Assembly: GCA_016188915.1 (NCBI GenBank)
Contig: JACPGU010000002.1
Coordinates: 241,211 to 305,210 of the forward strand
Direction: 5' to 3'
Length of the DNA: 64,000 nt
From: Candidatus Microgenomates bacterium
GTDB taxonomy: Bacteria; Patescibacteriota; JACPGU01
Shown piece by piece: positions 1 through 63,389 of this stretch; within the stretch, counting starts at the first letter, position 1; every line of letters begins with the position of its first letter. A model generated the notes under the pieces. That model did not search any database, was not told the origin of the DNA, and worked only from the letters and a program-made list of their open reading frames with translations. Made by a program: the position numbers and the translations under genes.

Positions 1-1
1 T

Positions 2-6495: not shown

Positions 6496-6530
6496 GAGAT
6501 TTTGAAAAATATTTTTTTATGATATAATAT

Positions 6531-6623: not shown

Positions 6624-6713
6624 TTGCATATTCCCAGCGTCGAATGTTAGGGATGTAGTTTTTGCTAGCGTAGTTATGTTTATAAAAAAAGCCTTGTAAG
6701 AGGGGTTTTTTAT

Positions 6714-6744
6714 TGTTATACTAACTACTAGTGATTTAGTAGTA
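6714..6744 (+). promoter_or_regulatory. extended -10 (TGtTATACT) followed by the inverted repeat ACTACTAgtgattTAGTAGT; candidate Rrf2 autoregulatory operator
   Basis: The palindrome at 6725-6744 lies ~15 nt upstream of the Rrf2 start codon. Confidence 0.4.
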
Positions 6745-6758
6745 GTCTAAAAAGAGTA

Positions 6759-7166
6759 ATGATAAAATTCAACAGGCAATCAGATTATGCTTTGGTTTTG
6801 GCTACGGAATTAGCCATTGACCACAAAAAAGGGAATTGGGTTCCCCTTTCCGTAGTGGCCGACAAATATAATTTGTCTGTTAAATTTTTAGGTTCGGTAG
6901 CCGGTATCTTACGCAAAAAAGGGCTGATTTTATCCAAAGAAGGAACGGGCGGTGGCTATGCTTTGGCGCAAGATCCCAGAGAAATTATGATCGGTGATAT
7001 TCTGTATGCTACCTTGACCGATTCCGCGCCGTCGCTTTGTACTTCCAGTATCGGTTGTGTTAATGAAAAAAAATGTCCGGCCAAGCCAGTTTGGGGAGTG
7101 GTGCAGGGAGTTTTGGAGGAAGTACTTTTTTCCATCAGCCTCAAAAGTTTGCTTAAGATTAAATAA
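6759..7166 (+). CDS. Rrf2 family transcriptional regulator (IscR/SufR-like)
   Basis: The protein has an N-terminal wHTH (MIKFNRQSDYALVLATELA) and a Cys cluster (CTSSIGCVNEKKCP). It is the first gene of the suf operon. Confidence 0.85.
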   Translation: MIKFNRQSDYALVLATELAIDHKKGNWVPLSVVADKYNLSVKFLGSVAGILRKKGLILSKEGTGGGYALAQDPREIMIGDILYATLTDSAPSLCTSSIGCVNEKKCPAKPVWGVVQGVLEEVLFSISLKSLLKIK

Positions 7167-7168
7167 CA

Positions 7169-7912
7169 ATGAATAATCTTCGTATTTCTAATTTGCGTGT
7201 CAGAATCGATGGTAAGGAGATCTTAAAAGGCGTAGACCTTTCTTTAAGCGAGGGCGAGATTCATATCCTAATCGGGCCTAATGGTTCTGGTAAATCAACC
7301 CTGGCGCAAATGGTAGCGGGAAATCCGGGATATCTAGCTAACCGTGGTAGCATCAAATTTTTTGGTAAAAATTTGTCAAAACTTTCTCCTGATGAAAGGG
7401 CCAAGATGGGGATTTTTGTCTCCTTCCAGTCCCCTATCGCTATTCCGGGGCTACCTTTATTCTCTTTGCTTTTTGAATCTTTTAAGGCGATATCAAATGA
7501 AAATAAAAATATTTCTTTTGAATATTTTTTTCGCGATCAAATTATTCCCGGCCTAAAACTTTTGGGGCTAGACCAGTCTTTTATCGATCGTAGCGTTAAT
7601 GATGGCCTCTCCGGCGGCGAGAGAAAAAAATCAGAGATTTTGCAAATGTTGGTTTTAAATCCTAAACTCACTATTTTAGATGAGATAGATTCGGGGCTGG
7701 ATATTGATGCTGTCAAAACAGTTTTTTCCGCTATCAAAAAAATCAAGACTAAAAACCCCCAGATGAGTATTCTGCTTATTACTCATAACCAAAATATTTT
7801 GCGCTATATTAATCCAGATATGGCGCATATCATGAATGATGGGAAGATTATTATTTCTGGTGGAACAGAATTGATTAGAAAAACAAGCGAAAAAGGCTAC
7901 AAGCAAGAATAA
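7169..7912 (+). CDS. sufC: Fe-S cluster assembly ATPase SufC
   Basis: The protein has a Walker A motif (GPNGSGKST) and the LSGGERKK signature. Confidence 0.9.
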   Translation: MNNLRISNLRVRIDGKEILKGVDLSLSEGEIHILIGPNGSGKSTLAQMVAGNPGYLANRGSIKFFGKNLSKLSPDERAKMGIFVSFQSPIAIPGLPLFSLLFESFKAISNENKNISFEYFFRDQIIPGLKLLGLDQSFIDRSVNDGLSGGERKKSEILQMLVLNPKLTILDEIDSGLDIDAVKTVFSAIKKIKTKNPQMSILLITHNQNILRYINPDMAHIMNDGKIIISGGTELIRKTSEKGYKQE

Positions 7913-21800: not shown

Positions 21801-23233
21801 CTTATTCCACCAGTACCGTGGTTTTCACCGGCAACGCATCTTTTACCATTCCGGCAACCACTTATTATAATTTAACTTTTAGTCCGACCGTGGTGACGAC
21901 CGGCAAGACCTATACTTTTGGCGGAGCAGTGGCGGTCAATAGCGCCTTGGATATCAATCCGGACGCGGCTACCAGTCTTTCTTTGACGGTCAATCTCGGT
22001 GGCGCGCTCACCGGCTCGCCGGCTGTCACCGTTAGAAGGCAAAATTCGGCGGCTTCCGTTTTGGATACTACGGCCGGCAATTATGGTATTACGGCTACCA
22101 GTTTTGACATCCAAGCAGGCGGGACAGTGACACTTAACGCTTCTACTGTTTCGGCTTCCGGCGCGGTGACCATTGCTTCATCGGGGACGTTAAATGCCAC
22201 TTCTGGCACTTTCAGTATTGGTGGCAATTACACGAATAATGGCACTTTTTCTAGCAACAACGGCACCGTTACCATCAACGGCTCTTCGCAGCAGACTTTG
22301 GCCGGAACGATGACAACGACCAACGCTTTCAAGACTCTGACAATTACCAATAGTAGTGGCGCCGATCCCGATGCTTCGCCTTCGGTAATTTTTTCGGCCG
22401 CGGCGACCGCCACCACTTTCAACGCGGTGACGGCCTCAACCAAAATTCGCTTCTTGGCGGGCGCGACCTATACTTTTACCACTTTCAATGTCAATGGCCA
22501 GGCGACCGGTACGCGCGTTCAGCTCCGTTCCTCTTCCTCGCCGACCGCTTGGTTGCTTGTCGCTAGTGGCAGTCCGGTGGTTTATAATACCAATCCCAAA
22601 GATTCCAATGCTTCCGGCGGGAGCAGCATTGATGCTTCAGCCGCATCCAATTTGGACGGTGCGGGCAATACCAATTGGAATTTTGGAGGACTTTCTACTG
22701 ATATTGTAGACAGTAATGGCGATCCAGTGGGTAGTCCAGCGGTAGCTATGGATAACGCTTCTTTAGGTTTTGCTTGCCAGTCTGCTACTGGTACCTTGGG
22801 GGCGGCTTCGCAGAAAATGCGTGTTTCCAATAGCACGGGCAATCCTTCATGGACCCTAACTATCGCGCCGACTGATGGGGCCACTACGACTTGGACGGCT
22901 GGCGCGCCCTTGTATGATTTTAACGACGCGACAGCTTCTGGCTGTTCGGATGGGATAGACGCTGATGGAGTGGGTGGACAGCTAACGATGAACGCTTCGG
23001 CAGGGACGGTGACGCCACAGGGCGGTTGTTCTTCTACGGGAATTACAAAAGGTAATTCAGCTGCTTTTGTGCAGGGCACTACTGACAGCGTCACCATTTT
23101 GTCGGCTAGCGGTCTGGCGGAAACTAGTTGTTATTGGGATTTGACAGGCGTTTCTTTGAGTCAATCAATTCCGCAAGAGCAAACTATCGGCAATTACTCT
23201 TTGAATATGACGATTACTTTGACTGCGAATTAA
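15893..23233 (+). CDS. giant (2446 aa) secreted Thr/Gly/Asn-rich tandem-repeat surface protein with a WxL-like C-terminal domain
   Basis: The protein has an N-terminal signal anchor. A beta-helix-like low-complexity region carries about four ~180-aa tandem repeats (NNPT.N.TG...CAS.C..MTFTKSSNT.TLNGTANTKTITDNNTTKQDLG). The C-terminal ~190 aa are homologous to the 238-aa protein at 11921..12637. Confidence 0.8.
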   Translation: MVKKHSPKGKKARIGDALFTLRKRGKSPWFFAVFLIVLFLIGQLTSKAYAANFYPNLCFGTADSKKAVGQIKNSASDQTPSEFAVTIDEENVTLDCAQFRDEGKSSRVRKVQEATLKIFWSTNTDSIGEGAKASFWQTKKALAADEETTTEIVSEKITEEIIAPEQIENVISGQTIGTTEPIEDTVSDQDAQINKATIAISYTLDNAIWQDLANVGINNLATEFPLNLKDSSDIANFHLRVTSIGDFGQNLVLLDGFAISAVFQNDFSDEEIEALPRVDIGEELFVAPKKDFRADEAVEFEIKGFQDAGTSQNPTASLSEARSISIANLKSPAHLVAQGVVGRQISNLQYIFPAHAEEITAGAVQVLTAEVYDPIGNTGTITPLVQEIGGTTKIIVNKPTRGFRPGRYRLHLEVLDLASSQILISDQNFTWGVLAINLNKSVYLPFESAYLQMGVLDDQGSTICNANLKLEITDPLGGFTILTTASGSISLSDQCDKNNVTDTPDYFAYYTTGDLGVYQMTLTNLTNLYSVTDTFEVRNYAPMTIERISATRINPFKANYRMIFELRANEAFSGAFSETLPDNFEVIDPTINNDTAYDLLITSGDKKIISWNLSLNRNQRKTITYTYDSPDVSPQLYLAGPASAGTIFTETRNWQIASDAACSSNGTGNWSNGATWSGCTGTGGVPAADDTITITDGHAVTLDTTATVAGLTLCDSACNADTSLTHSGSNALTVNGTVTINGGAGAGDNTLWTINGGSATVSGAISYNPQSTTGGRDAKIALSTGTLNANGGIVFENTAGSEDNQMLAMTSTATVNLKGSISNQTLADIQPGTTSTFVYIDSAAAQTVVFDATSSTYAKLTFSNTHASGVTLGAALTATNTTGDVNVLHGIFVTGGYNMTGTGSNTLTMSNGSQFDQTGATLISSFAGLSTSATSTYRLLTTNATFSMATLIYGNVVVSPQANNVAVTPSSGTLSMQGYLTLGGVGAYTGITLNIDTSDPTFNVDGDTTIGANHTLILSATGTATFGGSWTNAGTLTHSSGTVTFDATDTGNTINNNSSSFYNLKLNGSGGEWSALTNTLTIANDLTVSAGTLNNSAGTADITVNGNVACNGTCGTVNLTSGTFLQSVTTNKAFGTNVAVGTNWIFNNLTFTGTSDTITTSSTGTGTIEVKTNLTISTATTLDAGNRTFILSAASTTPATFTGTLTGNTSIFRYTGAGNTTIPASTGYSTVQLYPGANSAIFTLDSGTFTLSGDFIAGGNSSYTGTTVTLGANNPTMNITGDFTVCASSCPEMTFTKSSNTITLNGTANTKTITDNNTTKQDLGKIAIGNASAAKIVNMGSTLKLETLNITANATFSFNNGAYTLTITGTGTPLTKTGTFTATTGTTTYVGNGATTITAATYNNLQIFPGGASVTHTLASGTFTIGGDLDIGGNANGASTVVTAGANNPTIGLTGNLVVCASTCSNQMTFTKSSNTLTLNGTANTKTITDNNTTKQDLGALAIGNGATAKHIGLGSNIKATSVNITASAFFEPGAYTATLTANGTPFTVSGTFTPATSTIEYAPASTTGVTVASTTYHHVIFNKTSNTFSLTTSGITTDTANGGGDLTISAGTLDTVSGSNYPISIGGSWTNSDTFTANSGTVTFTSVNTGETLSGTLSGASSFNNIIFNGSGGEWTPGSAVNLNGDLTMTAGTLLGTQNITVAGGDVTGDGAITLTGGTFKVTGASGTGFGGATAWSFSSLTFGDGADSATTTATGSGGITVSSVLTIDATHTLDAAGKIWTLSGTTDPFVKTGTFTPNTSTFKFTGNGATNIPATTYYNLQVFPGGAVTHTLGAGTFTINNNLDLGGNTNPASTVITAATNSPTVNITGNLTLCATTCSNQMTFTKGGTITLSGAANTKSLTDNNTTKQDLGDITIGNASLAKIIQLGSSIKATSINITTNATLDANGTNTITLTGTTTPFTTNGAFTYSTSTVVFTGNASFTIPATTYYNLTFSPTVVTTGKTYTFGGAVAVNSALDINPDAATSLSLTVNLGGALTGSPAVTVRRQNSAASVLDTTAGNYGITATSFDIQAGGTVTLNASTVSASGAVTIASSGTLNATSGTFSIGGNYTNNGTFSSNNGTVTINGSSQQTLAGTMTTTNAFKTLTITNSSGADPDASPSVIFSAAATATTFNAVTASTKIRFLAGATYTFTTFNVNGQATGTRVQLRSSSSPTAWLLVASGSPVVYNTNPKDSNASGGSSIDASAASNLDGAGNTNWNFGGLSTDIVDSNGDPVGSPAVAMDNASLGFACQSATGTLGAASQKMRVSNSTGNPSWTLTIAPTDGATTTWTAGAPLYDFNDATASGCSDGIDADGVGGQLTMNASAGTVTPQGGCSSTGITKGNSAAFVQGTTDSVTILSASGLAETSCYWDLTGVSLSQSIPQEQTIGNYSLNMTITLTAN
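19690..21700 (+). repeat. in-frame tandem coding repeats (~540-bp period, about four copies) inside the giant gene
   Basis: A recurring DNA block containing accaagcaagacct occurs at ~19850, ~20390 and ~21625. The protein-level repeats are listed above. Confidence 0.7.
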
Positions 23234-23461: not shown

Positions 23462-26400
23462 ATGAAATGGATAAAAAACAAAAAAAGCTATCTTTCCCCC
23501 CTTTCTTTTTTCAAAGAAAAAAGCAATCAAATTTATTCTTTTTTGATTGTTGTTTTAGTTTTACAGATAGCTGTTCTTGCTATTTTGGTGCCATTAGTGC
23601 GGGGAGTAAATTCTACTACTCACACCAGCCAAGAAGATTTTGCGGCAGGCGCTATCTCTCAAACAGCAGTGACTAATAGCTCTGGCGGTGAGATTTCTTT
23701 GGCTACTGTTTCTTCCAGTTTTGCCCAACAATCTTTCGGCACTAACTCTCTCGGCGAAGTAGGAGTCAAGGTCAATGATTTATACGCCGCCTATAGCCCC
23801 AGTCTAGTCCACGATTCCTTAGGCAATACCTACGTTGCCTACTTTTTCGCCGGTTCAACTTGGGATATTGTAGTCAAAAAATATGATTCTGCCGGAGCGC
23901 AAGATTTGACTTTTGGCACAGCTGGCACTTTGACTATTTCATCTTCTGCTGTTGCCGGCGGGATTATGCCCAATACACCATCTTTGGTAGTGGACAATAC
24001 CAACAGTAATCTCTATGTCGCCTGGGATGCCGGAGCGCCTCTCGCCAGCGCTAAAACTATTTATGCCAAAAAGTTTTCTTTTGCTGGTGTTATTGACACG
24101 AGTTTTGGCACGAGCGGGCTTTTGACTGCCGGTAGTAATAACAAATCTATCAGCACGGATCATAGTTTTTCTATTAGTATTGATACCAATAGCAAACTCT
24201 ACATTGCCACGAATGGTACGAGCGGGACGAGCCTCACAGTCAAAAGATACACTACGGCCGGAGCCCTGGATGCTAGCTACGCGACATCCGGAACATTAAC
24301 AGCCGTTTCTACCGGCAACGCGGTCGGTGACCCATATATGGTAGTTAATGGTGGCGACAATCTTTATCTCCTTTACTACGAAAATATTTCCGGTCCGCAC
24401 AAAATCTACGCCAGGAAATTCAATTCTTCGGGAGTAACGGTGACCAGCTTTGGCGCCAGTGGAATCTTGGAGATCGCTTCTTCCACGCAGGCATTGCGAG
24501 ATCCCGTGGTAGTTTTCGGTGGTTCAGAGAACGGCTATGTCGTTTGGACGGAAGCGGCCAACAATGATATTTACGCCAAGAAATTTTCCACGGCCGGAGT
24601 TTTAGACACGAGTTTTGGCACGAGTGGTATGGCAACAATAACTACAGCTAGTAATATTCAGAGGAAACCGGCGCTGGCCCTAGATTCCAGTGAAAATATG
24701 TATATCGCCTGGGAAGATAATCGCGGAGCGGATTACAGCATTTATACTAAAAAATTCAATTCCTCTGGCACGTTGGTTTCCGGCTTTGGAACGGCGGGAG
24801 AATTAGCCACTTTCGATAATAGCAACAATCAATTTTATCCGGCGATTATGACTGATGCCACCGGTGATATTTATCTTGCTGCTTCTGATGATCGCTCTAC
24901 CGGCAATACCAAATATGATTTGTATATAAGAAAATTCAATTCCTCCGGTACGCGATATAACGATTATTCACCGGCCACAGCAGATGATGTGGCGATCAGC
25001 GGTGAATCTTCTAGCCAAGAACATCCTGCTTCCGCTACCGATTCTGACAACAATGTTTATTTCGTTTGGCGCAATATGGCAACGGACGCCAACGGCGATA
25101 TTTATATGAAAAAATACAGCGCCATGGGCTTTCTCTACGACGGTACATCCGCTTCTCCGGAATTTGGCACCGACGGGCAGGTCTTGATTTCCTCTGCCGG
25201 GACGAACGCTGCCCAGCGCGCGCCACGGATAACGCTAGATAGCACTGATAATATTTATGTCTCTTGGTATGACAATCGTGATGGGGCAAATTACGACGCT
25301 TACGTGAAAAAATTTAGCAGTAGTGGCGCGCTAGACGCAACTTTTGGCTCATCAGGAGAGTTAACGGTGGAGGCAGGGATTTTAATCGGCGCGGGCGAAT
25401 CCGATGAACTACCGACAGAAATGGGGCTGGGGGTGGATTCCTCTGACAATATCTATGTTGCTTATTACAAAGATTTGGCTCTGGATGGCGCTGATTACGC
25501 GGTCTATATCAGGAAATACTCTTCGGCCGGCGTTATCGTTTCGGCCTTTGGCAGTTCCGGCACTTTGACGGTAGCAAGTAGCAGCCTAGCCGATACCTTT
25601 CCCACGCTGACTATTTCTTCCGCTAATAATCTTTATGTCGGTTATGTGGAATGGGAGCTGGACTTCTCTGACTCTAAAGTGAAGATTAAAAAATATAATT
25701 CTTCCGGGACGATAGATAGCGCTTTTGGTACGAGCGGGACCATCACTTACGATAATGTTGGCGATATTGATCGCGAGGCGAGGCTGGCTTTGGATTCTAC
25801 CGGAGCCGTTTATCTGGCTTCGGGCAATGTAGATGATCTCATCGCGCCTACTGCCTACCAAATATTCCTGACCAAATATGATTCAGCTGGCGTTATCGTT
25901 ACGAGCTTTGGTACCGGTGGCACGATCACTTTGGCGACTTCAGCCAATGCGACCATCTATCCTTCTATCGCCACAGATTCGGCAGACAATATCTATGCTA
26001 CTTGGACGCAAACGGTAGCCGATAATGATATCAAGCTTCGCGTTTACAATACTGCCGGAACGCTCAATACTAATGTTGGCACTAACGGAGTTTTGGTTTT
26101 GGACTCTACAACGGCCAATGCCAATCAGGTAGCTATAACCGTTGGAGCAGGAGACGCTATCTATTTTGCTTGGTCGGACGGGGCGATATCTGGCGCCAAA
26201 TATGATTTCACTGGCGGTTCGACTGTCTATTATACTTCTGGTACTTTTGAATCGGCCACGATTGATACTGGCTCTAGCACGCAAGTTTACGGCAATTTGT
26301 CTTGGTCGGTAACGACGCCAGTCGGCACATCGGTTTTGTTCCAGGTGGCTACGGCCACCACTGATAGCGGCTATGTCTATCGCGGACCGGGTGGATTTTT

Positions 26401-27748
26401 GGACACCTACTACACCACTTCCTCTGGTCATAATATTTGGTCAGGGGCGGACAGCCAGAGATATTTCCGCTACAAAATGATTTTGGCCACGACCGATGCT
26501 ACGGCCAGTCCTAGTGTAGCCAGTGTTACTATCGCTTATAACCTGCCACCAAACGCCCCTTCTTCTTTAGGGCCGATGGCTTCTATCGACGGAACGGCTT
26601 CTTCTAACACCAGACCTAACTTCTCTTTTACCTTGACCGACAATGATACATCCGACACGGTTGGCTATCGTATTCAAATTAGCCAAGTGAGCGACTTTTC
26701 TTCCAGTATCGTTGACTATACTTCGGCTATGGCCACTCAGGGGACAGCTTCTTTTTCAGTTGGACAGGCTACAGGTAGTGGTAGCTATACGACGGGGTGG
26801 CTTAATCAGACTTTGTCTGAAGGAAATTATTATTGGCGCGTCGCTGCTATTGACGAAAACAATCTTATCGGTAATTGGACGACAGCCAATTCAGGCAATG
26901 TTGCTTTGACAATTTCTTTGCCACCATCCTATACGGCACCTATCGAATCAACCGGCGGAGGTGGCGGGGTAGAACCCAAGGCCGCCACGCCAGAGAAAAA
27001 GGCCACAGAGACCTTTACCGATAATTTTTCCATAAATATTAATGACGATCAGATCAATACAACTAATCTGGAAGTTACTTTGCGTTTTAGTGCTCCTTCT
27101 TCTGCTACGGAAGTGGAGATTTCTAATTATCCTGACTTCAAAGAATCTACTCGCGATCAATTCGCTAGAGAGAAAAAATGGTCTATCTGTGCCGACAAAG
27201 ATACAGGCGCGGTCGGAAAAGCCAACATCAAAACCCACAATTGTTCAGAGGGCGAGTACAGCGTCTATGCTAGATTTTATAATGCCAAAGGAGAAATGTC
27301 GGCAGTTTTCAGAGACACCATCTCTTATCGTCTGAATACGAAAGATATAACTGAGGGGGCAAATCAAGCTATCCCAGAGAAAGGTGGCACGCCACAAAAT
27401 ATTAGTGAGACAATTAGCCCCAACGATAATACTGGTAGTCAAACAGAGATTTTGCCGGCGCTGGTTTTTGTTCCCGACATCATCTTTTTCAACAATATGC
27501 GAGTGGGTTCCAATGGGGTGGAAGTCAAGGCTTTGCAGGAATTTTTGAATAAAAACGGTTTTACGGTAGCTGATAATGGTCCTGGTTCTTCCGGCGGTGA
27601 AACGCAGTATTACGGCGCGTTGACTGCCCGGGCAGTGGCTAGATTTCAAGAAGCCAATGCTGATCAGATTTTGACTCCCTTGGGCTACACCAAGGGTACG
27701 GGTATCTTTGGTCCCGCGACGAGAAATTATATTAATTCACTGAAATGA
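23462..27748 (+). CDS. giant (1428 aa) secreted protein with ~15 delta-60-like repeats, Ig/FN3-like modules and a C-terminal peptidoglycan-binding (PG_binding_1-like) domain
   Basis: Repeated units of ~45-60 aa (IYAKKF.S.G.LDTSFGTSG.LT...) follow a signal anchor. The C-terminus VGSNGVEVKALQEFLNKNGF...YYGALTARAVARFQEAN resembles a PG-binding domain. Confidence 0.8.
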   Translation: MKWIKNKKSYLSPLSFFKEKSNQIYSFLIVVLVLQIAVLAILVPLVRGVNSTTHTSQEDFAAGAISQTAVTNSSGGEISLATVSSSFAQQSFGTNSLGEVGVKVNDLYAAYSPSLVHDSLGNTYVAYFFAGSTWDIVVKKYDSAGAQDLTFGTAGTLTISSSAVAGGIMPNTPSLVVDNTNSNLYVAWDAGAPLASAKTIYAKKFSFAGVIDTSFGTSGLLTAGSNNKSISTDHSFSISIDTNSKLYIATNGTSGTSLTVKRYTTAGALDASYATSGTLTAVSTGNAVGDPYMVVNGGDNLYLLYYENISGPHKIYARKFNSSGVTVTSFGASGILEIASSTQALRDPVVVFGGSENGYVVWTEAANNDIYAKKFSTAGVLDTSFGTSGMATITTASNIQRKPALALDSSENMYIAWEDNRGADYSIYTKKFNSSGTLVSGFGTAGELATFDNSNNQFYPAIMTDATGDIYLAASDDRSTGNTKYDLYIRKFNSSGTRYNDYSPATADDVAISGESSSQEHPASATDSDNNVYFVWRNMATDANGDIYMKKYSAMGFLYDGTSASPEFGTDGQVLISSAGTNAAQRAPRITLDSTDNIYVSWYDNRDGANYDAYVKKFSSSGALDATFGSSGELTVEAGILIGAGESDELPTEMGLGVDSSDNIYVAYYKDLALDGADYAVYIRKYSSAGVIVSAFGSSGTLTVASSSLADTFPTLTISSANNLYVGYVEWELDFSDSKVKIKKYNSSGTIDSAFGTSGTITYDNVGDIDREARLALDSTGAVYLASGNVDDLIAPTAYQIFLTKYDSAGVIVTSFGTGGTITLATSANATIYPSIATDSADNIYATWTQTVADNDIKLRVYNTAGTLNTNVGTNGVLVLDSTTANANQVAITVGAGDAIYFAWSDGAISGAKYDFTGGSTVYYTSGTFESATIDTGSSTQVYGNLSWSVTTPVGTSVLFQVATATTDSGYVYRGPGGFLDTYYTTSSGHNIWSGADSQRYFRYKMILATTDATASPSVASVTIAYNLPPNAPSSLGPMASIDGTASSNTRPNFSFTLTDNDTSDTVGYRIQISQVSDFSSSIVDYTSAMATQGTASFSVGQATGSGSYTTGWLNQTLSEGNYYWRVAAIDENNLIGNWTTANSGNVALTISLPPSYTAPIESTGGGGGVEPKAATPEKKATETFTDNFSININDDQINTTNLEVTLRFSAPSSATEVEISNYPDFKESTRDQFAREKKWSICADKDTGAVGKANIKTHNCSEGEYSVYARFYNAKGEMSAVFRDTISYRLNTKDITEGANQAIPEKGGTPQNISETISPNDNTGSQTEILPALVFVPDIIFFNNMRVGSNGVEVKALQEFLNKNGFTVADNGPGSSGGETQYYGALTARAVARFQEANADQILTPLGYTKGTGIFGPATRNYINSLK

Positions 27749-43296: not shown

Positions 43297-43299
43297 CAA

Positions 43300-43390
43300 C
43301 GGAGAAGGAGGGATTCGAACCCTCGATACGGGTTTTCACCCGTATAACGGTTTAGCAAACCGCCGCCTTCAGCCACTCGGCCACCTCTCC
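43300..43390 (-). tRNA. tRNA-Ser with anticodon GCT (type II, 91 nt)
   Basis: The minus-strand sequence is GGAGAGG-TG-GCC-GAGTGGCTGAA-GGC-G-GCGGT-TTGCTAA-ACCGT-(long variable arm)-GAGGG-TTCGAAT-CCCTC-CTTCTCC-G. Confidence 0.85.
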
Positions 43391-43552
43391 ATATTTTTGA
43401 TTTAAACATCACGATAGACTGAAACATCTTTTCTGCTCTAGGCGGCATATCAACCTTTGGTTGATTACGCCTTTCCCGCCACAACTATCATAAAATATTA
43501 TAGTAGGCGGGACCCCTGCCTCGCCGGCAGGCAGGCCGCCTTTGGCGGTGGC

Positions 43553-43573
43553 AGCCACTCGGCCACCTCTCCT
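43553..43573. repeat. 21-nt duplicate of the tRNA-Ser(GCT) 5' end, ~165 bp upstream of the gene
   Basis: The plus-strand CAGCCACTCGGCCACCTCTCC is the reverse complement of GGAGAGGTGGCCGAGTGGCTG, i.e. tRNA positions 1-21. It is adjacent to the GC palindrome CCTGCCTCGCCGGCAGGCAGG at 43516-43536, which pairs with CCTGCCTGCCGGCAGGCAGG at 43207-43226. Confidence 0.6.
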
Positions 43574-43676
43574 GGTCTAATTTTGCTCCAAATCTTTGAT
43601 TTTCTTGTCCATCTTAGCACAATTAAGAAATTGAGTTAATATGGAGATTCCGATATAATCATGTGGTAAATCAAAT

Positions 43677-43763
43677 GGAGAGCTGCCAGAGTGGTCGAAT
43701 GGGCCGCACTCGAAATGCGGTAAGGGCGTAAGCCTTTCAGAGGTTCGAATCCTCTGCTCTCCG
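43677..43763 (+). tRNA. tRNA-Ser with anticodon CGA (type II, 87 nt)
   Basis: The sequence is GGAGAGC-TG-GCC-AGAGTGGTCGAATG-GGC-CGCAC-TCGAAAT-GTGCG.. The anticodon stem CCGCA/TGCGG encloses loop CTCGAAA. The T-arm is AGAGG-TTCGAAT-CCTCT, the acceptor 3' strand is GCTCTCC and the discriminator is G. Confidence 0.85.
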
Positions 43764-43836
43764 TTTGCCCTAAACAATAGAGCGGCAAACCTAAAAGACC
43801 TATACTTTCATAGCTTCAAACTTATTATCATAAGGA

Positions 43837-44697
43837 TTATTTAAGGTTACTTAAATATTTCTTCAATTCATCTTTGGTCTCAGGATGTTTTAGCCCTAGC
43901 TCTATATTGGCTTTGAGCCAGCCGATTTTGGAGCCGGTATCATAATATTTACCTTCTATCTGACAAGCATAGACGGGACGTTTTTTGACCAAATTATTGA
44001 TGGCATCGGTCAGCCATTTTTCTCCACCTTTTCCAGGCTTTAGATTCTCTATTTCATCAAAAATGTCAGGAGTCAAAATATAGCCGGAAGGAGCGGCCAA
44101 AAGAGAGGGAGTTTTCTCTGGGCCCGGTTTTTCCACTACGGATTTTACTTGATAAATATTGCCGGTTATTTTGTCGGCCTCCAACATACCGTATTTTTCG
44201 GTATCAGCTTTTTCTACCGTATAGCCAGTTAGGACAGGATTTTGATATTGATTGAAAACTTCAATCAATTGTTTCAAGCGGGGCTTTTCGCCGACAAAAA
44301 GATCGTCACCAAAAGCGACGGCAAAAGGTTCATCGCCGATAATGCTTTTGGCGCACAAAACAGCGGCGCCATTGCCTGGAGAACCTTTTTGGCGGACATA
44401 GACAAAATTGGCCATTTGAGCTATTTTTCTTACTTCGGCCAACATCTCTTTTTGTCCCTTTGTCTCCAGCCATTGCTCTACGTCTTTAGAATAATCAAAA
44501 TGATCCTCAACGGATCTTTTCATGGAGCTAGTCACCAAGATAATATCGGTAATACCAGAGGCTACTGCTTCTTCTACGATGTATTGCAAGATAGGCTTGT
44601 CTACTATTGGCAACATTTCTTTGGGCTGAGCCTTGGTAGCTGGCAAAAATCTTGTACCAAAACCGGCTACCGGTATTACGCATTTTCTTATCGGCAT
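43837..44697 (-). CDS. galU: UTP--glucose-1-phosphate uridylyltransferase
   Basis: The N-terminus MPIRKCVIPVAGFGTRFLPATKAQPKEMLPIVDKPILQYIVEEA is the canonical GalU sequence. The start is taken at MPIRK, because the longer ORF-track start lies inside an inverted repeat. Confidence 0.85.
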   Translation of the reverse strand: MPIRKCVIPVAGFGTRFLPATKAQPKEMLPIVDKPILQYIVEEAVASGITDIILVTSSMKRSVEDHFDYSKDVEQWLETKGQKEMLAEVRKIAQMANFVYVRQKGSPGNGAAVLCAKSIIGDEPFAVAFGDDLFVGEKPRLKQLIEVFNQYQNPVLTGYTVEKADTEKYGMLEADKITGNIYQVKSVVEKPGPEKTPSLLAAPSGYILTPDIFDEIENLKPGKGGEKWLTDAINNLVKKRPVYACQIEGKYYDTGSKIGWLKANIELGLKHPETKDELKKYLSNLK

Positions 44698-44732
44698 ATT
44701 TTTTGTTGCATTAATTGGACTTAATTTCATCT

Positions 44733-44983
44733 GCATGGTGGAGGGGGAGACCCGCCTGCTGGCGAGGCAGGGATTCGCCCAGTTATTCGACTGGGCACCA
44801 GATCGAATAATCTGGCAAACTCATTTACTGCCTTAAACGGAGAGAGTGGGATTCGAACCCACGAACCACTTGCGTGGTTAACAGTTTTCAAGACTGTCGC
44901 CTTCAACCACTCGGCCATCTCTCCGCTTCTCTGCGGTGGCAAGACAATTGCACTAAACTACTATGCGACCCCTCCACCATGCA
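44733..44983. repeat. 15-bp inverted repeat (TGCATGGTGGAGGGG / CCCCTCCACCATGCA) bracketing tRNA-Ser(TGA) and ~160 bp of GC-rich hairpins
   Basis: The arms are at 44733-44747 and 44969-44983. Internal hairpins include CCCAGTtattcgaCTGGG and CCAGATcgaataATCTGG. Confidence 0.55.
44838..44924 (-). tRNA. tRNA-Ser with anticodon TGA (type II, 87 nt)
   Basis: The minus-strand sequence is GGAGAGA-TG-GCC-GAGTGGTTGAA-GGC-G-ACAGT-CTTGAAA-ACTGT-(variable arm)-GTGGG-TTCGAAT-CCCAC-TCTCTCC-G. Confidence 0.85.
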
Positions 44984-57711: not shown

Positions 57712-58746
57712 TTAGGGAGATGGAGGCATAGTGTAATCGCTTGTTTCGTCTGTCGGAGGGGGCTGGTCGGGGTCTAGCTCTTTGAGCCTTCGTCCGCATT
57801 GGCCGCAGAAGATGTCATCTTCGGCGGCTTCTTTTTGACACATCGGACACTTTCGGACATCGGGATTTTGCGTGGAGCCCATTTTTTCCGAAGCCTTTTC
57901 CTCGCCCATTGAGCCTTCCTCCTTGCGTTCTTTCTTCTGACGGCATTTTGGGCAGAAATCATAGCCTTTGGGAATCGGGGCGTTACATTGGGGACAGTAA
58001 GGTGACGAAATGGCCGTGCCGAGTTCTTTTTTCTGTGACCTTTCGTCACTAATGAGCTCAGCGCCACAGCCACCGCAGAAGATTCCGTCTCCTATGACGC
58101 ACAGTTCGGCGGTAGTGTAGGTGCCAGGAGTTTTCATCTCCACTTCTTTCTCCATATCTTCCATATCTTCGCGCGCCAGTTTCAAGAGAGCATCCCAAGA
58201 CCCCGTTTCTTCTGCAATAATGAAGAGATTAAGGGGGTCATAGCCTGGCTTTTGGGCATTGCCGGGCTCATTCAGCCAGTCAATTAGCTGATTCGTCTGG
58301 TAGAAAAGAGTGTTGGCCATCGTCATTACTTCACTGGATGTTTGCTCTTGGGCGAGTAAATTCCTCAGCAGTTTATGGAGGTATTGCAGGGCGTCGACGC
58401 TGGATACAATCAAGTTCATATCTTCGATCCGAGCCACTCTCTTAGTCAAAAAGGCAGGGTCGTCGTATCGATGAGATGGAACTTGAAATTTTGCAATAGG
58501 CGCGATGACCCCTTGCTTGGTATTGTTGACGACGACAGGTTTTATCTGCCTTTTTCTCGCCTCTCGCGATGGCCGTGGTCGGAAAATGAGGTAAATCAGA
58601 CCGTAGGCAGTCAGAACGATCGCCAATAGCAGAACGAGCGAGCAGATGTCAGTCGGCAGGCTCACACCGAGAGAGCTGGACAACCGATTGATGAAGGGGG
58701 TTGTGATTTCCTCCCACAAGTCGAAAAAGCTGAAAATAGTCTCCAT
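57712..58746 (-). CDS. hypothetical membrane protein with C-terminal tandem zinc-ribbon domains
   Basis: An N-terminal TM is followed by a cytoplasmic region and three CxxC...CxxC ribbons (FCGGCG..CPQCN; CPKCR; CPMCQ..CGQCG). Confidence 0.5.
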   Translation of the reverse strand: METIFSFFDLWEEITTPFINRLSSSLGVSLPTDICSLVLLLAIVLTAYGLIYLIFRPRPSREARKRQIKPVVVNNTKQGVIAPIAKFQVPSHRYDDPAFLTKRVARIEDMNLIVSSVDALQYLHKLLRNLLAQEQTSSEVMTMANTLFYQTNQLIDWLNEPGNAQKPGYDPLNLFIIAEETGSWDALLKLAREDMEDMEKEVEMKTPGTYTTAELCVIGDGIFCGGCGAELISDERSQKKELGTAISSPYCPQCNAPIPKGYDFCPKCRQKKERKEEGSMGEEKASEKMGSTQNPDVRKCPMCQKEAAEDDIFCGQCGRRLKELDPDQPPPTDETSDYTMPPSP

Positions 58747-58910
58747 GGCGGAGCGCCTCCTTGATTTTGGTTTTGTGATTTTTTAAACATCAAAAAATCT
58801 TTCCTTATTATAGCCTATTTCGCTTTATAAAGTCAATATTTTTCTGGCAATGTCCGACTTTGCCAGACTTTTTGGCTATCGGTATTCTTGTTTTTGTGCT
58901 AAAATACTTC

Positions 58911-58938
58911 ATAACTCATAACTCATAACTCATAGCTC
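58911..58938. repeat. heptamer tandem repeat (ATAACTC)x3 + ATAGCTC
   Basis: The repeat is seen directly in the intergenic region upstream of 57712..58746. Confidence 0.6.
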
Positions 58939-59083
58939 ATGCTTAGCATCGGCAATTTCACTATTCTGATTTTCCCCTAGTAATGCCTTTTGAAATTAAA
59001 TTAAATATGCCTAAGCCACGCAAAAAAAGAATCATCCTACAAAGGGATGAAAATGGGCGGATTTTGCACTCTAAAGTGGCCGA

Positions 59084-59275
59084 TTAATTAGATTTTTCAT
59101 TGTTGTCGGTGAGGACTTGTTCTTTTTCTTTATTCTCTAGATATATTTTATATAAAATCTCATAATATTGGGTTATTTGTTCTGCATATAGCCCCGCTTC
59201 CTCATCTGTTAGCTCTTTTCCAGCCTCCTCTTTTACTATTCGTTTGAATTCTTGTATTAATTTTTCTGATAACAT
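59084..59275 (-). CDS. small acidic helical protein (hypothetical)
   Basis: The 63-aa ORF may be the last gene of the minus-strand operon. Confidence 0.3.
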   Translation of the reverse strand: MLSEKLIQEFKRIVKEEAGKELTDEEAGLYAEQITQYYEILYKIYLENKEKEQVLTDNNEKSN

Positions 59276-59476
59276 ATCTTTGTTCTAAATGATAATTGTT
59301 TTAAGCTCCTAAATTACCGAACAAATACCGAATATTTACTGAATAAGAAGATAAAAAACTACCCCTATATAAAAGCTCCTATTCAAAAATGGCGTTGGGG
59401 GGGGTCTTTCCTTTATGGGTGGTAAGCCGAGTGGGAATCCTGCTTCCTCAAAGCGAAGGCTAACTTAAAGTATTTC

Positions 59477-59932
59477 TTAAACTTTTTTGTTCTTTGCTAG
59501 ATTATGGCCGTATTTAACAGCATTTAGGATTAATAGTTGGATTTCTTTTACAAAAAACTTTGGGTAACTTACTAAATCCTCTTCTGATTCATTTGGATAG
59601 CTTTTTGAATCTTCTTCAAATTCTCCTGAACAATTTCTTAGATCCTTTTCTAATTCACACAGATAAATATTATTAGCCTTTTCTTTAATTTCCTCCTCAC
59701 TTATTAACTGACCATCTTCAATACCATATTTGACGGCTTCCCTAATGCGATCGTAGTGCCAGAAGGGGATATTGACGATATCTCTTATTTCTTTCCATCT
59801 TTCTTTGGTTATATGCACATTACCTATAGACTCATCAACATACTTTCTTAGAAGACTATCTAAAGCATCATAGGGATTAGTTTCAAAATCAAATGTTTCT
59901 TGGTTTTTCATAGGTTTATATTTAAAAGACAA
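59477..59932 (-). CDS. hypothetical acidic cytoplasmic protein
   Basis: The 151-aa protein has no recognisable family. It overlaps the upstream CPBP gene by 11 nt, suggesting translational coupling. Confidence 0.45.
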   Translation of the reverse strand: MSFKYKPMKNQETFDFETNPYDALDSLLRKYVDESIGNVHITKERWKEIRDIVNIPFWHYDRIREAVKYGIEDGQLISEEEIKEKANNIYLCELEKDLRNCSGEFEEDSKSYPNESEEDLVSYPKFFVKEIQLLILNAVKYGHNLAKNKKV

Positions 59933-60701
59933 AGATAATATTACTTAATATATTATTTCCTATATGCCCCAATATAGCATATTTAAACCCATACCTCATC
60001 CGCAAAAATCCCAATATTAAACCCCCTGTTGCTTGGGGGAGAATAAAGAAAGGAATCAAAAACCAAAAGTTGCTAAAGTTGGAAAAGTTAGACAAATGAT
60101 CTAGCCCAAACAATATTGCCGAGATATAGAAAATATACCCAAATCTTTTTTGGTAGAAGCTCCTGATTTTTTGTTCGTTTAGGAATCTCTTCATTGTCTT
60201 TGCCAGCAGAAAACCCAGTACTAAGACTATAGTAATCATAATAGGAGCTATAATCCAGTCATAAGGGTCAGAAAACACTGTAATGAGCCAGCCCCAGCCA
60301 ATATCCACACTAGCTATCCAAGTTCGTAATTCCTCAAAAAATGCGATACAGAGGAATATAAGGGCAAATGCGAGGTTGTAAAAAGAGAATCTCAGCCCAA
60401 GCCTAAATGTAAGCTCCTCCATGACAGGAGCTCCTATCAAAACGACTAGAATATAATAGATCGGTCTATAATCAGCCTCTCCTCCCACAAAGTTTCCGAC
60501 ATCATAATCAAATAATCTAAATAGGTGGTAATTAAGATATACCAATATGCTATTAATTGCCAATCCTATTATTATTAGAATGAGAATATTAAGAAGGTCA
60601 ACCGCCGTTTTCTTTTTGTTTGAATCAATGGAATAATCGGGTTTCCGTAAAAACTTCAGAAAAGATAAAACTATGTTTTCCTGATCTATTTTATTTTCCA
60701 T
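59922..60701 (-). CDS. CPBP family intramembrane glutamic endopeptidase (CAAX protease / Abi bacteriocin-immunity family)
   Basis: Multiple TM helices carry motif 1 EExxxR (GAPVMEELTFRLGLRF) and a His motif (FGLDHL). Confidence 0.75.
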   Translation of the reverse strand: MENKIDQENIVLSFLKFLRKPDYSIDSNKKKTAVDLLNILILIIIGLAINSILVYLNYHLFRLFDYDVGNFVGGEADYRPIYYILVVLIGAPVMEELTFRLGLRFSFYNLAFALIFLCIAFFEELRTWIASVDIGWGWLITVFSDPYDWIIAPIMITIVLVLGFLLAKTMKRFLNEQKIRSFYQKRFGYIFYISAILFGLDHLSNFSNFSNFWFLIPFFILPQATGGLILGFLRMRYGFKYAILGHIGNNILSNIIFVF

Positions 60702-61194
60702 TTTTGTTTGTTGGTATTTTGGTCTCTTTTATTAGCTTTGGTGGTCTAATGCTCGTGTCATAAACTGATATTTTGTCGTCTGATATTATCGTGGTCATCT
60801 TTGAATCATGATAATTAAAAAGCTCCTTTAGTTGTTTGCTTCGTGCCTTTTTAAAGAAGTGGAGATAGTTGGTTTTAAAATTTGATCTTTGTTGGCTACT
60901 GAATTGTTGTATATTCAATTGCTCTTCAAAAAGAACATCCAAGCTCTTTTTTGAATCATCCTCGCATGCTTTAACAAAGACAGGGAGTAAAGAGTGGCAA
61001 CAATGGCCTGAACAGCCAAAATCTATTATTTGATTAGCGAATATATTTATTATCCAGATCAGAAAATCAATAGGAGCTTCAAATCCCATTTTGGCCAATA
61101 ATTCCTCGGCTTTGATTGGTGAAGCTCCTCGTACATGAAAACCGCCCTTGTCAGCATATCCGCTTAAATTGTCTAAGCGTTGTTGGTTGGTCAT
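60691..61194 (-). CDS. hypothetical cytoplasmic protein with a degenerate GCSGHCC motif
   Basis: The 167-aa protein contains IIDFGCSGHCCHSLLP, which weakly recalls a SAM-binding GxGxG motif. It overlaps the CPBP gene by 11 nt. Confidence 0.4.
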   Translation of the reverse strand: MTNQQRLDNLSGYADKGGFHVRGASPIKAEELLAKMGFEAPIDFLIWIINIFANQIIDFGCSGHCCHSLLPVFVKACEDDSKKSLDVLFEEQLNIQQFSSQQRSNFKTNYLHFFKKARSKQLKELFNYHDSKMTTIISDDKISVYDTSIRPPKLIKETKIPTNKNGK

Positions 61195-61199
61195 AATAT

Positions 61200-61439
61200 T
61201 TATTGATTAATCGCATAAATAACGGAGAATATTGTAAAAGCTATAAATAATAGACCTCCCAATATTGCTAAAATTCTGGAAAGTATGGGGCTACTACTTG
61301 TAGAGGGTCTTAGTGGATCCCCAACAGTAAAGCTCTTAGATAGCTCTTCATTGGAATAAAATATGCCACTAAATAAAGCTCCTAACCCAATTCCCAGTGA
61401 CACTATTGCTACTAATACTATCCCAATAATTTTCATCAT
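61200..61439 (-). CDS. small two-TM membrane protein (79 aa), first gene of the operon
   Basis: Two hydrophobic helices are separated by a Ser/Pro-rich loop. The gene lies 6 nt upstream of the next gene. Confidence 0.45.
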   Translation of the reverse strand: MMKIIGIVLVAIVSLGIGLGALFSGIFYSNEELSKSFTVGDPLRPSTSSSPILSRILAILGGLLFIAFTIFSVIYAINQ

Positions 61440-61459
61440 ATTTTTAAATTATTGATAAA

Positions 61460-61600
61460 ACAAAAGGACAACCTTGCAGGTTGTCACACCCAATTAGACA
61501 GGTTGTGCCTAATTGTTTTACAAAGTTGCCCTATTCTTGGTACAACCTTGCATTATCCTCACGGATAAAAAGCATAATAAATCTAATTGGGTGTGACAGA
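61460..61600. promoter_or_regulatory. promoter/operator region with nested inverted repeats
   Basis: A 15-bp perfect IR (GTCACACCCAATTAG at 61483-61497, CTAATTGGGTGTGAC at 61584-61598) has its arms 86 bp apart. The palindrome ACAACCTTGCAGGTTGT is at 61469-61485. A second copy of ACAACCTTGCA is at 61543-61553. Confidence 0.45.
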
Positions 61601-61623
61601 TTCATTATAGCACGACATAAAAA

Positions 61624-61682: not shown

Positions 61683-63389
61683 CTAAAACTCTAAATTCCA
61701 AACCTTATCTATAGAATATTTGGATAATTCTTGTGCTCTTTCCTTTATACTGTCTTCATTCCACGCGTCTCGTTGCAGATATTTTGAAAATATTTCTATA
61801 CCTTGAGCATACTCAACTAGCCCATGATTTTGGCCACTACCAGCTTTTTTGGTTTTCCAATCAGAATCTCTTATGGATGAATTGAGTTGTTTTGTTATTA
61901 AAGTTAAATTGCCTAATGTTAATATTAGATCGTCACGGTCATTTTCCTGCTCGTTTGTTAAATTATCGTCTTTCCAGTTATTCCGCCATTTTTTTGGCAT
62001 CACATGCTCTAGGCTATATTCGTCAAAATACTTAAGTTCCGTAGAGTTTAGATTGCTCCTAATAGATCTTTCAATTAAGTAAAGAATTCCTTTGGCTTGT
62101 TTGTTGCTTAGATCAGATTGTTTGATACCTTCTTCAACATCTTGATCGGAAGGCATATAATTAATTTTCTCCCCCTTCATTTCAATAAGCTCCTTCAATT
62201 TTTCTAGCGTGTTTATCTCGTTATTTATGAAGCTCCTAAATAATTGGTTATAATTTTTTGTCGTTTTCTTACAGATTAATCTTCGCATTAAATAAGCCTC
62301 AAGATATCTAAAAATTTTGTTCCTTTCATCTTGATTGGTAACCTTTTTTGCTACATACAGGATATACGGGATAATCGTCGCCGTATCCAACCCAAACATA
62401 ACCAAATTCAATCTTTGGACATAATCATTTTTGTTTACATCCTGTTCTACGATCTTTGGATTAACTGTGTTTTTATAAACAGAAGCATACTCTTTTAATT
62501 CACTTACCACTAAATCTTTAACTAAGCCATACTTAGCAATAAATTCTTTATACGAATTGAATACAGAATCAACCTTAAAATAACGCTCCTTATCATCAGA
62601 GGTAACATTAAGATCCTTCTCTTGAATTTTTATAAATAAATATGATTGCAAAAATAGATCTATATTATTTCTGATGCTTCGGCCTGAAGTAACTTCTTGA
62701 TCCCAATATTCCTTAATCTCGTCATCTTTTTCAAAAACATCTCGCCAGTTTTTGTTGTAAAATTCTATATCGTCTCGGAATAAGTAATTTTTTAGCAATT
62801 CAGCAGTTGTCAATCTAACACCAAGAGAGTTTATGGTATCAAAAATCTGTTGCTCATCTTCATTGAAAAGAAGATCAATGCCGACAAATAAAACATTAGA
62901 TAATAGATTGTTTGGATTTATTTCATTTGCCTCAATATTTTTTAGAAAATAGTCGTAACACCTGCTTATTTGGCTCTTCTTCTCTTTTGCATCAAGTTCT
63001 TGGTCTGTCAGTATTTTTTCAAAAATAGGTTTATCTGAGTAATTATGCTCTAAAATTATATTATTATTAAACATTGTAAAGATTTCCTGAAACTTTTCAG
63101 GTGTTTCATTTTTATTAAACAATGCCTTAAAAAACAACATAACCGTTGTTAATCTTTGTTGGCCATCAATAATTGTTCTAACATTATTTTCATTTACCTG
63201 CGTCTCCTGTTGTTTTAATATAACCGATCCCATGAAGTAGGGGCAGTTGGCACGAGAGGCATACCTCATGTCATCTAAAAATCTCTCCCATTGTTCTTCT
63301 TGCCAAACATAAGATCTTTGAAAATGAGGTATTTTCAATTTATTGGCTCTATTAAATATGTCAGATATATTTCTTTTTCCAGCTTCCAT
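61683..63389 (-). CDS. GmrSD-family (DUF262 + DUF1524) type IV modification-dependent restriction endonuclease candidate
   Basis: The N-terminal DUF262/ParB-like motifs are KIPHFQRSYVW and IIDGQQRLTT. The C-terminal DUF1524 His-Me finger is EHVMPKKW...N...NLTLI..LN. Confidence 0.8.
   Translation of the reverse strand: MEAGKRNISDIFNRANKLKIPHFQRSYVWQEEQWERFLDDMRYASRANCPYFMGSVILKQQETQVNENNVRTIIDGQQRLTTVMLFFKALFNKNETPEKFQEIFTMFNNNIILEHNYSDKPIFEKILTDQELDAKEKKSQISRCYDYFLKNIEANEINPNNLLSNVLFVGIDLLFNEDEQQIFDTINSLGVRLTTAELLKNYLFRDDIEFYNKNWRDVFEKDDEIKEYWDQEVTSGRSIRNNIDLFLQSYLFIKIQEKDLNVTSDDKERYFKVDSVFNSYKEFIAKYGLVKDLVVSELKEYASVYKNTVNPKIVEQDVNKNDYVQRLNLVMFGLDTATIIPYILYVAKKVTNQDERNKIFRYLEAYLMRRLICKKTTKNYNQLFRSFINNEINTLEKLKELIEMKGEKINYMPSDQDVEEGIKQSDLSNKQAKGILYLIERSIRSNLNSTELKYFDEYSLEHVMPKKWRNNWKDDNLTNEQENDRDDLILTLGNLTLITKQLNSSIRDSDWKTKKAGSGQNHGLVEYAQGIEIFSKYLQRDAWNEDSIKERAQELSKYSIDKVWNLEF

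Follow-up and report, generated by a model that had tools for sequence, protein, structure and literature searches.

The window analysed here is a 64,000-nucleotide stretch (positions 241,211 to 305,210 of the 311,798-bp contig JACPGU010000002.1, assembly GCA_016188915.1) of the genome of a Candidatus Microgenomates bacterium, and it carries towards its end a cluster of five minus-strand genes (NCBI HYV44_02605 to 02625), referred to as p79, p167, CPBP, p144 and p63 (Table 1). Two of them, p167, which encodes a soluble protein with a cysteine loop, and the gene of a CPBP-family intramembrane protease, were found side by side again in a second, diverged locus, and through this recurrence they, alone among the five, have evolutionary evidence of forming a unit. 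We propose that the cluster consists of strain-specific accessory genes whose core, the p167-CPBP pair, could have a protective function at the membrane, of the immunity or exclusion type; we hold this reading tentatively, at somewhat less than an even chance. What is new here is the p167 family and the recurring p167-CPBP pair, whereas a CPBP protease with a tandem partner in accessory DNA was already known.

The recurring p167-CPBP pair

The second copy of the pair lies on a 1,077-bp metagenomic contig (L010), where a p167 homologue (P0009) shares 28% identity with p167 over its full length (E = 3.6e-7 in a search of 1.84 billion proteins), retains the cysteine that is invariant in the family, and is the only homologue to align with the C-terminal half of p167. 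A CPBP gene starts 11 nt after P0009, and its product, which is 46% identical to the window CPBP over 142 aa before the contig ends, is by far the closest relative of that protease. Since the pair is found again at these levels of identity, at least p167 and CPBP look like a unit, and their adjacency appears to have survived substantial divergence. The gene upstream of P0009 ends in a hydrophilic tail, and therefore p79 is not conserved beside that pair. Furthermore, none of the other p167 homologues with readable flanks has a CPBP neighbour, and none of the other CPBP relatives has a p167 neighbour. The five genes together, regarded in a preliminary description of this DNA as one co-translated module, were found as a unit nowhere else; only p167 and CPBP recur, and they do so once.

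p167 is basic, lacks any hydrophobic segment, ends in ...KIPTNKNGK and carries at residues 60-66 the odd GCSGHCC motif that had caught attention in the preliminary description (G60-C61-S62-G63-H64-C65-C66). In a 5.8-billion-protein index it retrieved only itself, and an exhaustive HMMER search of 1.84 billion representatives yielded 13 remote homologues with 30-43% identity. The part shared by the family is the N-terminal ~90 residues, with the consensus RFxxLRGYYxxxxFHxxG...LLxxLxF...DFLxW...CxGxCCxSLL, in which C65 is invariant and C66 near-invariant (alignment A1), and this conserved N-terminal part is followed by variable C-terminal parts and by variable downstream genes; 10-15 residues separate the Cys motif from the C-terminus in the short members. 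No Pfam, NCBIfam or PHROG family was found for p167 and its 13 relatives (14 members), and IMG/VR, INPHARED and PLSDB held no relatives of p167. AlphaFold2 predicts one compact domain with the Cys motif in its middle (predicted local distance difference test, pLDDT, 85.7; predicted template modelling score, pTM, 0.75), and this model has no structural neighbour in the PDB. p167 is thus, as far as its sequence tells, a member of a rare, undescribed Cys-loop family, which so far appears to be confined to contigs resembling those of the Candidate Phyla Radiation (CPR).

The genomic context was read for nine p167 homologues (loci in Table 1). In L041, the end of the FtsK_SpoIIIE ATPase gene overlaps the p167-like gene by 4 nt, and HicAB-like genes (translations read by eye), MazE and a type IV secretion system pilin follow further on; the p167-like gene, which lies with the ATPase gene in L041 5070-6318, is itself split into 29-aa and 105-aa open reading frames (ORFs), probably through a frameshift or as a pseudogene. 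The overlaps with FtsK-like genes in L041 and L013 occur in unrelated loci with opposite gene orders, and the ATPases are short and single-domain. We considered on account of these neighbours that p167 might be a substrate of the WXG100 or type VII secretion type and rejected it, since short single-domain ATPases next to an integrase, an excisionase and a type IV secretion pilin make a conjugation-type context likelier. In L009, an ankyrin-repeat-looking protein is encoded upstream of the p167 homologue and overlaps it. In four of the contigs (L006, L008, L009 and L011), UGA codes for an amino acid and every gene contains many TGA codons in frame, and the motif of their homologues is FGCGSCC under code 25, where database translations show W; such reassignment is typical of CPR bacteria of the Gracilibacteria/Absconditabacteria type. 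Overall, the p167 family appears to reside in mobile or variable regions of CPR-looking genomes, usually without CPBP.

The 259-aa partner of p167 had been assigned to the CPBP family, and correctly so: it passes the Pfam profile PF02517 narrowly (23.6 bits vs a gathering cutoff of 22.4; E = 6.5e-5; aligned to positions 4-93 of the 93 in the profile), and all three catalytic motifs, E95-E96-L-T-F-R100 (EExxxR), F198-G-L-D-H202 (FxxxH) and H246-I-G-N-N250 (HxxxN/D), are kept in an alignment with 10 relatives. Several Kyte-Doolittle hydrophobic segments within residues 30-233 and a grand average of hydropathy (GRAVY) of 0.69 characterise it as polytopic, and its motifs predict a catalytically intact glutamic intramembrane protease. 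The best curated model is NCBIfam NF052640 (M949_0222 family), which matches over the full length with E = 1e-9. The window CPBP shares its CPBP core and an N-terminal motif, F-[LI]-x-[FY]-[LIV]-[KR]-x-P, with distant relatives from Bacteroidota, Thermoplasmatota and other groups; with 38.6 bits against an equivalog cutoff of 220, however, it is a distant relative of that family and not a member. To our knowledge, no function has been described for NF052640. The name "Abi" attached to PF02517 is a legacy label now considered inappropriate (Haft 2023, bioRxiv 10.1101/2023.06.07.544157), and the clue to abortive infection that the preliminary description had drawn from it has to be given up.

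The cluster, its leader and the surrounding island

Table 1. Features of the gene cluster and its flank in the window, and loci of p167 homologues on other contigs.
Feature	Position	Strand	Description
p79	61200-61439	minus	79-aa membrane protein, from the ORF list; NCBI HYV44_02625, hypothetical
p167	60691-61194	minus	167-aa soluble Cys-loop protein, from the ORF list
CPBP	59922-60701	minus	CPBP/Rce1-like glutamic intramembrane protease (predicted), 259 aa, all catalytic motifs
p144	59477-59911	minus	144 aa with ATG at 59911; alternative TTG start at 59932 gives 151 aa
p63	59084-59275	minus	63 aa, small acidic protein
GmrSD	61683..63389	minus	GmrSD-type (DUF262/DUF1524) type IV restriction enzyme; context, outside the cluster
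Extended -10 element TGcTATAAT	61604..61612	minus	Read from the sequence; putative promoter element
Structured leader	61482..61598	minus	117 nt; 18-bp stem closing a three-way junction, two internal hairpins
Terminator-like hairpin before p79	61457..61485	minus	GACAACCTGCAAGGTTGTC then CTTTTGTTTT (U-tract); terminator scan
Terminator-like hairpin and T-run after p63	59032..59050	minus	Terminator scan; likely 3' end of the transcription unit
L041 p167-like locus			Ribosomal protein L19 gene, then integrase, HTH_17 excisionase, FtsK_SpoIIIE ATPase
L013 p167 homologue and FtsK-like gene	1589-3318		p167 homologue overlaps by 4 nt the next gene, for an FtsK-like ATPase that shares 34% identity with the L041 one
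L008 p167 homologue			With Rep_1 gene, TPR proteins, small membrane proteins
L006 p167 homologue			With integrase, resolvase, HTH, TPR proteins, Eco57I-type enzyme, SNF2 helicase
L009 p167 homologue			With three integrases, HATPase_c_3 protein, DNA methylase
L042 p167 homologue			With trypsin-like protein, PLD-SNF2 helicase

As described before, a GmrSD gene lies directly beside the cluster (GmrSD_N 2.7e-35 and GmrSD_C 7.5e-19 in Pfam; PADLOC matches Orf5, HEC-06 and mREase_IV). A Logan contig from another run (L001), which matches the window with 99.96% identity over 5,048 bp and extends past its end, gives the same-strand order HsdS, a 150-aa unknown protein, Shedu SduA, HsdR, a 491-aa Cas4-like/DUF2779 protein, GmrSD and the five cluster genes, with Shedu SduA (DUF4263) matched in PADLOC at 6e-16 and HsdR matched as REase_I with E = 0. 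The G+C content is 30-35.5% in the cluster and 31.6% in GmrSD, against 39-50% in the four genes measured outside: 50% in the adjoining zinc-ribbon gene, 45% in a recombinase gene, and 39% and 42% in two genes further out. The step in composition is sharp at the zinc-ribbon gene (57712-58746), which encodes a 344-aa double-zinc-ribbon membrane protein and has a G+C content of 57% at third codon positions. Given the low G+C content relative to these neighbours together with the defence genes, the cluster lies at the outer margin of a low-GC defence island that seems to have been acquired horizontally, so that the island context asserted in the preliminary description is borne out by GmrSD in the window and by Cas4-like/DUF2779, HsdR, Shedu SduA and HsdS in L001. 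No FtsK-like, relaxase or Rep domain was recorded between 58.7 and 64 kb of the window or on L001, where the 150-aa and 370-aa genes were checked partly or via precomputed annotation, and the left edge of the island and the distal part of L001 have no 12-mer in common that could mark att-like direct repeats.

Several side observations concern the island. The part of L001 that extends past the window end (1-7280) carries a type I restriction-modification locus in which Shedu SduA and the 150-aa gene are inserted between hsdS and hsdR, and the 150-aa protein has no match in Pfam, NCBIfam or PADLOC. At the island edge (58909-58960 of the window, L001 11749-11771) a 7-nt tandem repeat, TCATAAC, is present in 4.6 copies, beside which (about window 58952) the Logan copy holds 21 extra bases. 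The Logan contig ends here as well, at window 58923, which points to a heterogeneous population or to a break in the assembly where the island ends.

These neighbours raise the possibility of a new anti-phage system of the abortive-infection type, in which p167 would sense infection and trigger CPBP and/or p79 to damage the membrane. Such a system would fit a cluster that follows a series of restriction and defence genes (GmrSD, Cas4-like/DUF2779, HsdR, Shedu SduA and HsdS) in the same direction, that is as low in G+C as the rest of the island and that has a regulated-looking leader of its own; moreover, several p167 homologues lie near restriction-modification or defence-like genes (L006, L009, L042), and the pair is conserved once. 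However, the PADLOC models, which include candidate systems, gave no match to any of the five proteins (PADLOC-DB v2.0.0, no family at E <= 1 for p79, p167, CPBP, the 151-aa form of p144 or p63), no second copy of the five-gene unit was found, the sole other locus of the pair lacks p79, and "Abi" is a legacy name. Position within an island also says little, because islands carry anti-defence, addiction and unrelated cargo as well. We therefore consider an anti-phage system of this kind unlikely. The PADLOC result, in which only the neighbouring GmrSD finds a match, agrees with the earlier statement that the cluster resembles no characterised defence system. Of the membrane-based defence system proposed in the preliminary description, the genes, their packing, the CPBP assignment and the island hold, and the p167-CPBP pair recurs once, but since the five-gene unit was found nowhere else and "Abi" is a legacy name, what is left to speak for defence is genomic position; a defence role of the cluster is possible.

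Transcription of the cluster seems to start at a promoter of its own and to run through a highly structured leader. The extended -10 element, which has no -35 hexamer and is not listed by a consensus promoter scan, is located just downstream of a hairpin and T-run that likely terminate GmrSD. The leader is delimited by perfect 17-mer arms (61482-61498 and 61582-61598) and folds with a minimum free energy of -56.4 kcal/mol (z = -5.69), a value that 0 of 200 shuffled sequences reached, and the terminator-like hairpin that overlaps its end stops 17 nt before the start codon of p79. Two complementary 9-mers, CAAGGTTGT and ACAACCTG, each occur twice within the leader and could allow alternative pairings, so that the leader may be an attenuator or a small RNA. 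In Rfam it had no significant match, only a sub-threshold match to a small RNA over the GmrSD terminator. A repeated element, such as a miniature inverted-repeat transposable element, was considered and dismissed, as the window holds just two copies of the 17-mer arm, and three IMG/VR matches to the arm are to a single arm with neither partner nor flanking similarity and are therefore chance matches. The nested inverted repeats noted in the preliminary description are thus real, whereas the promoter beside them is putative.

All five reading frames are present in the ORF list where they had been described. As read from the sequence, p79 and p167 are separated by a 5-nt spacer and p167 and CPBP overlap by 11 nt, while CPBP is followed by p144 after a 10-nt spacer if translation begins at the ATG, which NCBI and the Logan gene caller both choose, or with an 11-nt overlap if it begins at the TTG. 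The close packing reported before therefore applies to the first four genes but not to p63, which lies ~200 nt from p144, with no terminator predicted between them, and whose membership in the unit is uncertain. Nor does spacing identify a module, as had been claimed: same-strand neighbours in the window are often 1-11 nt apart, gaps of <=11 nt or short overlaps being common throughout (7166/7169, 7912/7916, 11454/11461, 41976/41979, 52518/52521 and 55101/55103), and none of the 24 start codons checked in the window has a Shine-Dalgarno motif at the usual distance. Dense packing is a habit of this small streamlined genome, so the tight spacing of the cluster is by itself no mark of a module, and spacing-based operon calls are unreliable here.

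The three remaining proteins contribute little to a functional assignment, and the earlier remark that the partners of the protease belong to no recognisable family holds, as p79, p167, p144 and p63 had no significant match in Pfam, NCBIfam, PHROGs or PADLOC. p79 has, as noted before, two hydrophobic segments (residues 1-29 and 48-79; GRAVY 1.16) and no Cys, and differs between the window and the Logan copy by a single substitution, L63I; p144 is acidic (isoelectric point 4.9) and helical, and p63 is acidic as well (isoelectric point 4.6). Relatives of p79, p144 and p63 were found in none of the fetched loci and not in IMG/VR, large protein databases not having been searched, and single searches of plasmids (PLSDB) for p144 and of phages (INPHARED) for p63 were likewise empty. 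Apart from sequences of the same population, all three form singleton clusters at 90% identity, and their orphan status is provisional. Some weak resemblances yield no assignment. p79 as SecG was rejected (Pfam E = 0.023, far below cutoff), and p144 is not claimed as a DnaD-like or winged-helix replication protein, given only weak matches (NCBIfam DnaB loader, E = 0.0038; PHROG replication-initiation O-like, 0.039; HTH_Tnp_Tc5, 0.04) and an empty PDB sequence search. p63 and a 53-aa protein downstream of the L008 homologue (L008 4035-4196) have in common the motif G-x-[LI]-[ST]-D-E-E, which may be a coincidence; homology between them was unsupported by BLAST and was not retained.

In a genome of this kind, the five genes might have no joint function at all and represent unrelated orphan genes and mobile-element remnants, brought close together by genome streamlining. 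Tight spacing being the norm of the genome, three of the five proteins being without detectable relatives and relatives of p167 occurring in mobile-element contexts without CPBP are all consistent with this. Yet p167 and CPBP stand side by side in a second locus, where the two proteins are 28% and 46% identical to those of the window, an arrangement unlikely to have been kept by chance, and the five genes share their composition, with the first four on one strand behind one apparent promoter and a terminator after p63. An absence of joint function is contradicted for the pair and plausible for the three orphans, and for the cluster as a whole we regard it as rather unlikely.

Elsewhere in the window, two giant ORFs of 2,446 and 1,428 aa (15893-23233 and 23462-27748; 47-53% GC), the former without a Pfam match and the latter with a C-terminal peptidoglycan-binding domain, probably encode large CPR surface proteins, and three tRNA-Ser genes (GCT, CGA, TGA) lie on alternating strands within 1.7 kb (43299-44925).

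Relatives of the protease and characterised CPBP loci

In the 5.8-billion-protein index, the window CPBP retrieved itself and one match with 32% identity over 61% of the query. Genome and metagenome collections provided 26 loci with relatives at 25-41% identity, from Bacteroidota, one Thermoplasmatota archaeon, Proteobacteria and others, whose neighbourhoods differ among themselves and among which no p167-family gene was found nearby; IMG/VR, INPHARED and PLSDB contained no CPBP relatives. For instance, the relatives in Arcicella are followed by an ORF resembling a sensor histidine kinase and then by a response-regulator-like ORF (translations read by eye). In Flammeovirgaceae UBA5585 (L002-L005, L028), the gene of P0003, the CPBP relative with the longest contig, starts within the end of the preceding gene, with an overlap of 4 nt; the 295-aa product of that preceding gene contains the Rhs-associated core (TIGR03696, scored above its cutoff). 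The array there has at least six ORFs with an Rhs-core-like motif, four of them confirmed by TIGR03696, and behind most of the ORFs stands a small gene, in the usual case for a membrane protein. Because P0003 overlaps an Rhs cassette within an array of cassettes most of which have a small gene behind them, it seems to occupy the immunity-gene slot of an orphan array of Rhs C-terminal toxin cassettes.

This position suggests that the window cluster could be a cassette of toxin or bacteriocin and immunity, with CPBP as the immunity protein and p167 or p79 as its cognate toxin. Like P0003, the window CPBP is of the same subfamily, directly downstream of and overlapping the preceding gene in a variable, conflict-type locus; CPBP proteins are often encoded downstream of bacteriocin genes, as in the pneumococcal blp and the S. 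anginosus sil/angicin loci, where they are proposed self-immunity factors (PMC4517551, PMC9298176), a link to bacteriocin self-immunity also drawn by Haft (2023); and the p167 family, with its conserved N-terminus, variable C-termini and variable downstream genes, is loosely reminiscent of polymorphic toxin loci. In contrast to the UBA5585 arrays, however, the window has no array, and its upstream gene encodes neither an Rhs core nor any known toxin domain. In fact no Pfam or NCBIfam domain at all, such as would be expected of an Rhs- or LXG-type polymorphic toxin, is present in p167 or the 13 relatives. p167 furthermore has neither signal peptide nor trafficking domain and is predicted by AlphaFold as a single compact domain. 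With the blp and sil/angicin loci the cluster shares an Rce1-like protease and a short hydrophobic protein in a small, horizontally mobile accessory cluster, and the window CPBP, too, probably acts at the membrane. Unlike them, it has no recognisable bacteriocin precursor, and neither an ABC transporter nor a C39 peptidase nor genes for quorum sensing; within 59084-61439 and its flanks, no gene for a transporter or for a processing peptidase was found; p79 is an integral two-helix protein which opens with a hydrophobic helix and, read from its sequence, has no leader of the double-glycine type expected of a class II bacteriocin, and it lacks conservation; the partner that is conserved, a soluble protein with a Cys loop, is undescribed in those loci, and the host is a CPR bacterium. 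A toxin-immunity cassette is, on balance, distinctly unlikely.

A second group of CPBP enzymes offers a different comparison. The myxosortase-type proteases MrtX, MrtC, MrtP, MrtJ, MrtS and MrtA are sorting enzymes associated with Cys-bearing C-terminal sorting signals, and CPBP subfamilies have been predicted to process invariant-Cys clients that are often encoded in tandem (Haft 2023). By analogy, the invariant Cys of p167 would be modified and CPBP would then cut beside it. Both systems belong to the same protease superfamily, p167 has an invariant cysteine (Cys65) and stands in tandem with CPBP in two loci, and the position of the Cys motif near the C-terminus in the short family members would suit such processing. 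But p167 has no tripartite C-terminal signal, as it lacks the transmembrane helix and Arg cluster of myxosortase clients as well as their N-terminal signal peptide, its Cys motif (61-66 of 167) lies within a folded, presumably cytoplasmic domain, and p79, the hydrophobic protein of the cluster, contains no Cys. The MrtJ model, moreover, scores 16.8 bits against a cutoff of 75, and most family members have no CPBP nearby. Client processing of this kind is very improbable. Finally, the CPBP protein Abx1 partners the CovS kinase in group B Streptococcus (PMC3578759), which resembles the window in that a CPBP has a specific protein partner; the window partner, in contrast, is small and soluble, with a fold that has no known relative, and is no kinase, and the cluster contains no two-component system.

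A possible protective role at the membrane

We return to the reading that we prefer, in which the p167-CPBP pair would protect the island or the host at the membrane, in the manner of immunity or exclusion. p167 would act with CPBP at the cytoplasmic face of the membrane, as a regulator, an adaptor or a client, and CPBP would cleave a membrane-proximal substrate, whereas p79, p144 and p63 would be lineage-specific additions without detectable conservation. The choice of immunity or exclusion follows from the role that CPBP proteins encoded next to bacteriocin genes have been proposed to play and from the place of P0003 in an Rhs immunity slot; the coupling of p167 to CPBP, the direction of regulation, the substrate and the phenotype are what we infer.

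Several observations weigh against this reading. The pair recurs only once, on a contig too short to show a wider context, and P0009 lacks the CC pair, of which a single Cys is kept (TYCKES). Most p167 relatives adjoin other genes (FtsK-like, TPR, ANK or unknown), so p167 needs no CPBP, and the surroundings of distant CPBP relatives are unrelated and in many cases look like housekeeping loci. The cluster itself contains no gene that can be recognised as encoding a toxin, a bacteriocin precursor or a transporter. Furthermore, the recombinase 1.4 kb away is XerC/D-like, scores below equivalog cutoffs and may be a housekeeping enzyme, and the far end of the island lies beyond the sequence covered.

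As a long shot, the pair could be a minimal two-gene membrane effector module of CPR mobile elements, in which p167, from a family that travels with FtsK-like DNA translocases and integrases, would respond to DNA that invades or is being transferred, or to a cue from a phage, and would switch on CPBP, leading to abortive infection or to entry exclusion, while an attenuator in the leader would keep the module silent until needed.

The practical weight of these findings is modest, as the host is uncultured and the pair is present in two loci only. Nevertheless, bacterial CPBP proteases are abundant and their substrates and partners are mostly unknown, so that a soluble protein that recurs beside such a protease and has an invariant cysteine would supply a concrete, testable protease-partner pair. 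In addition, the p167 family, with a confidently predicted fold and no solved relative, adds an entry to the poorly charted genes of CPR mobile elements and defence islands.

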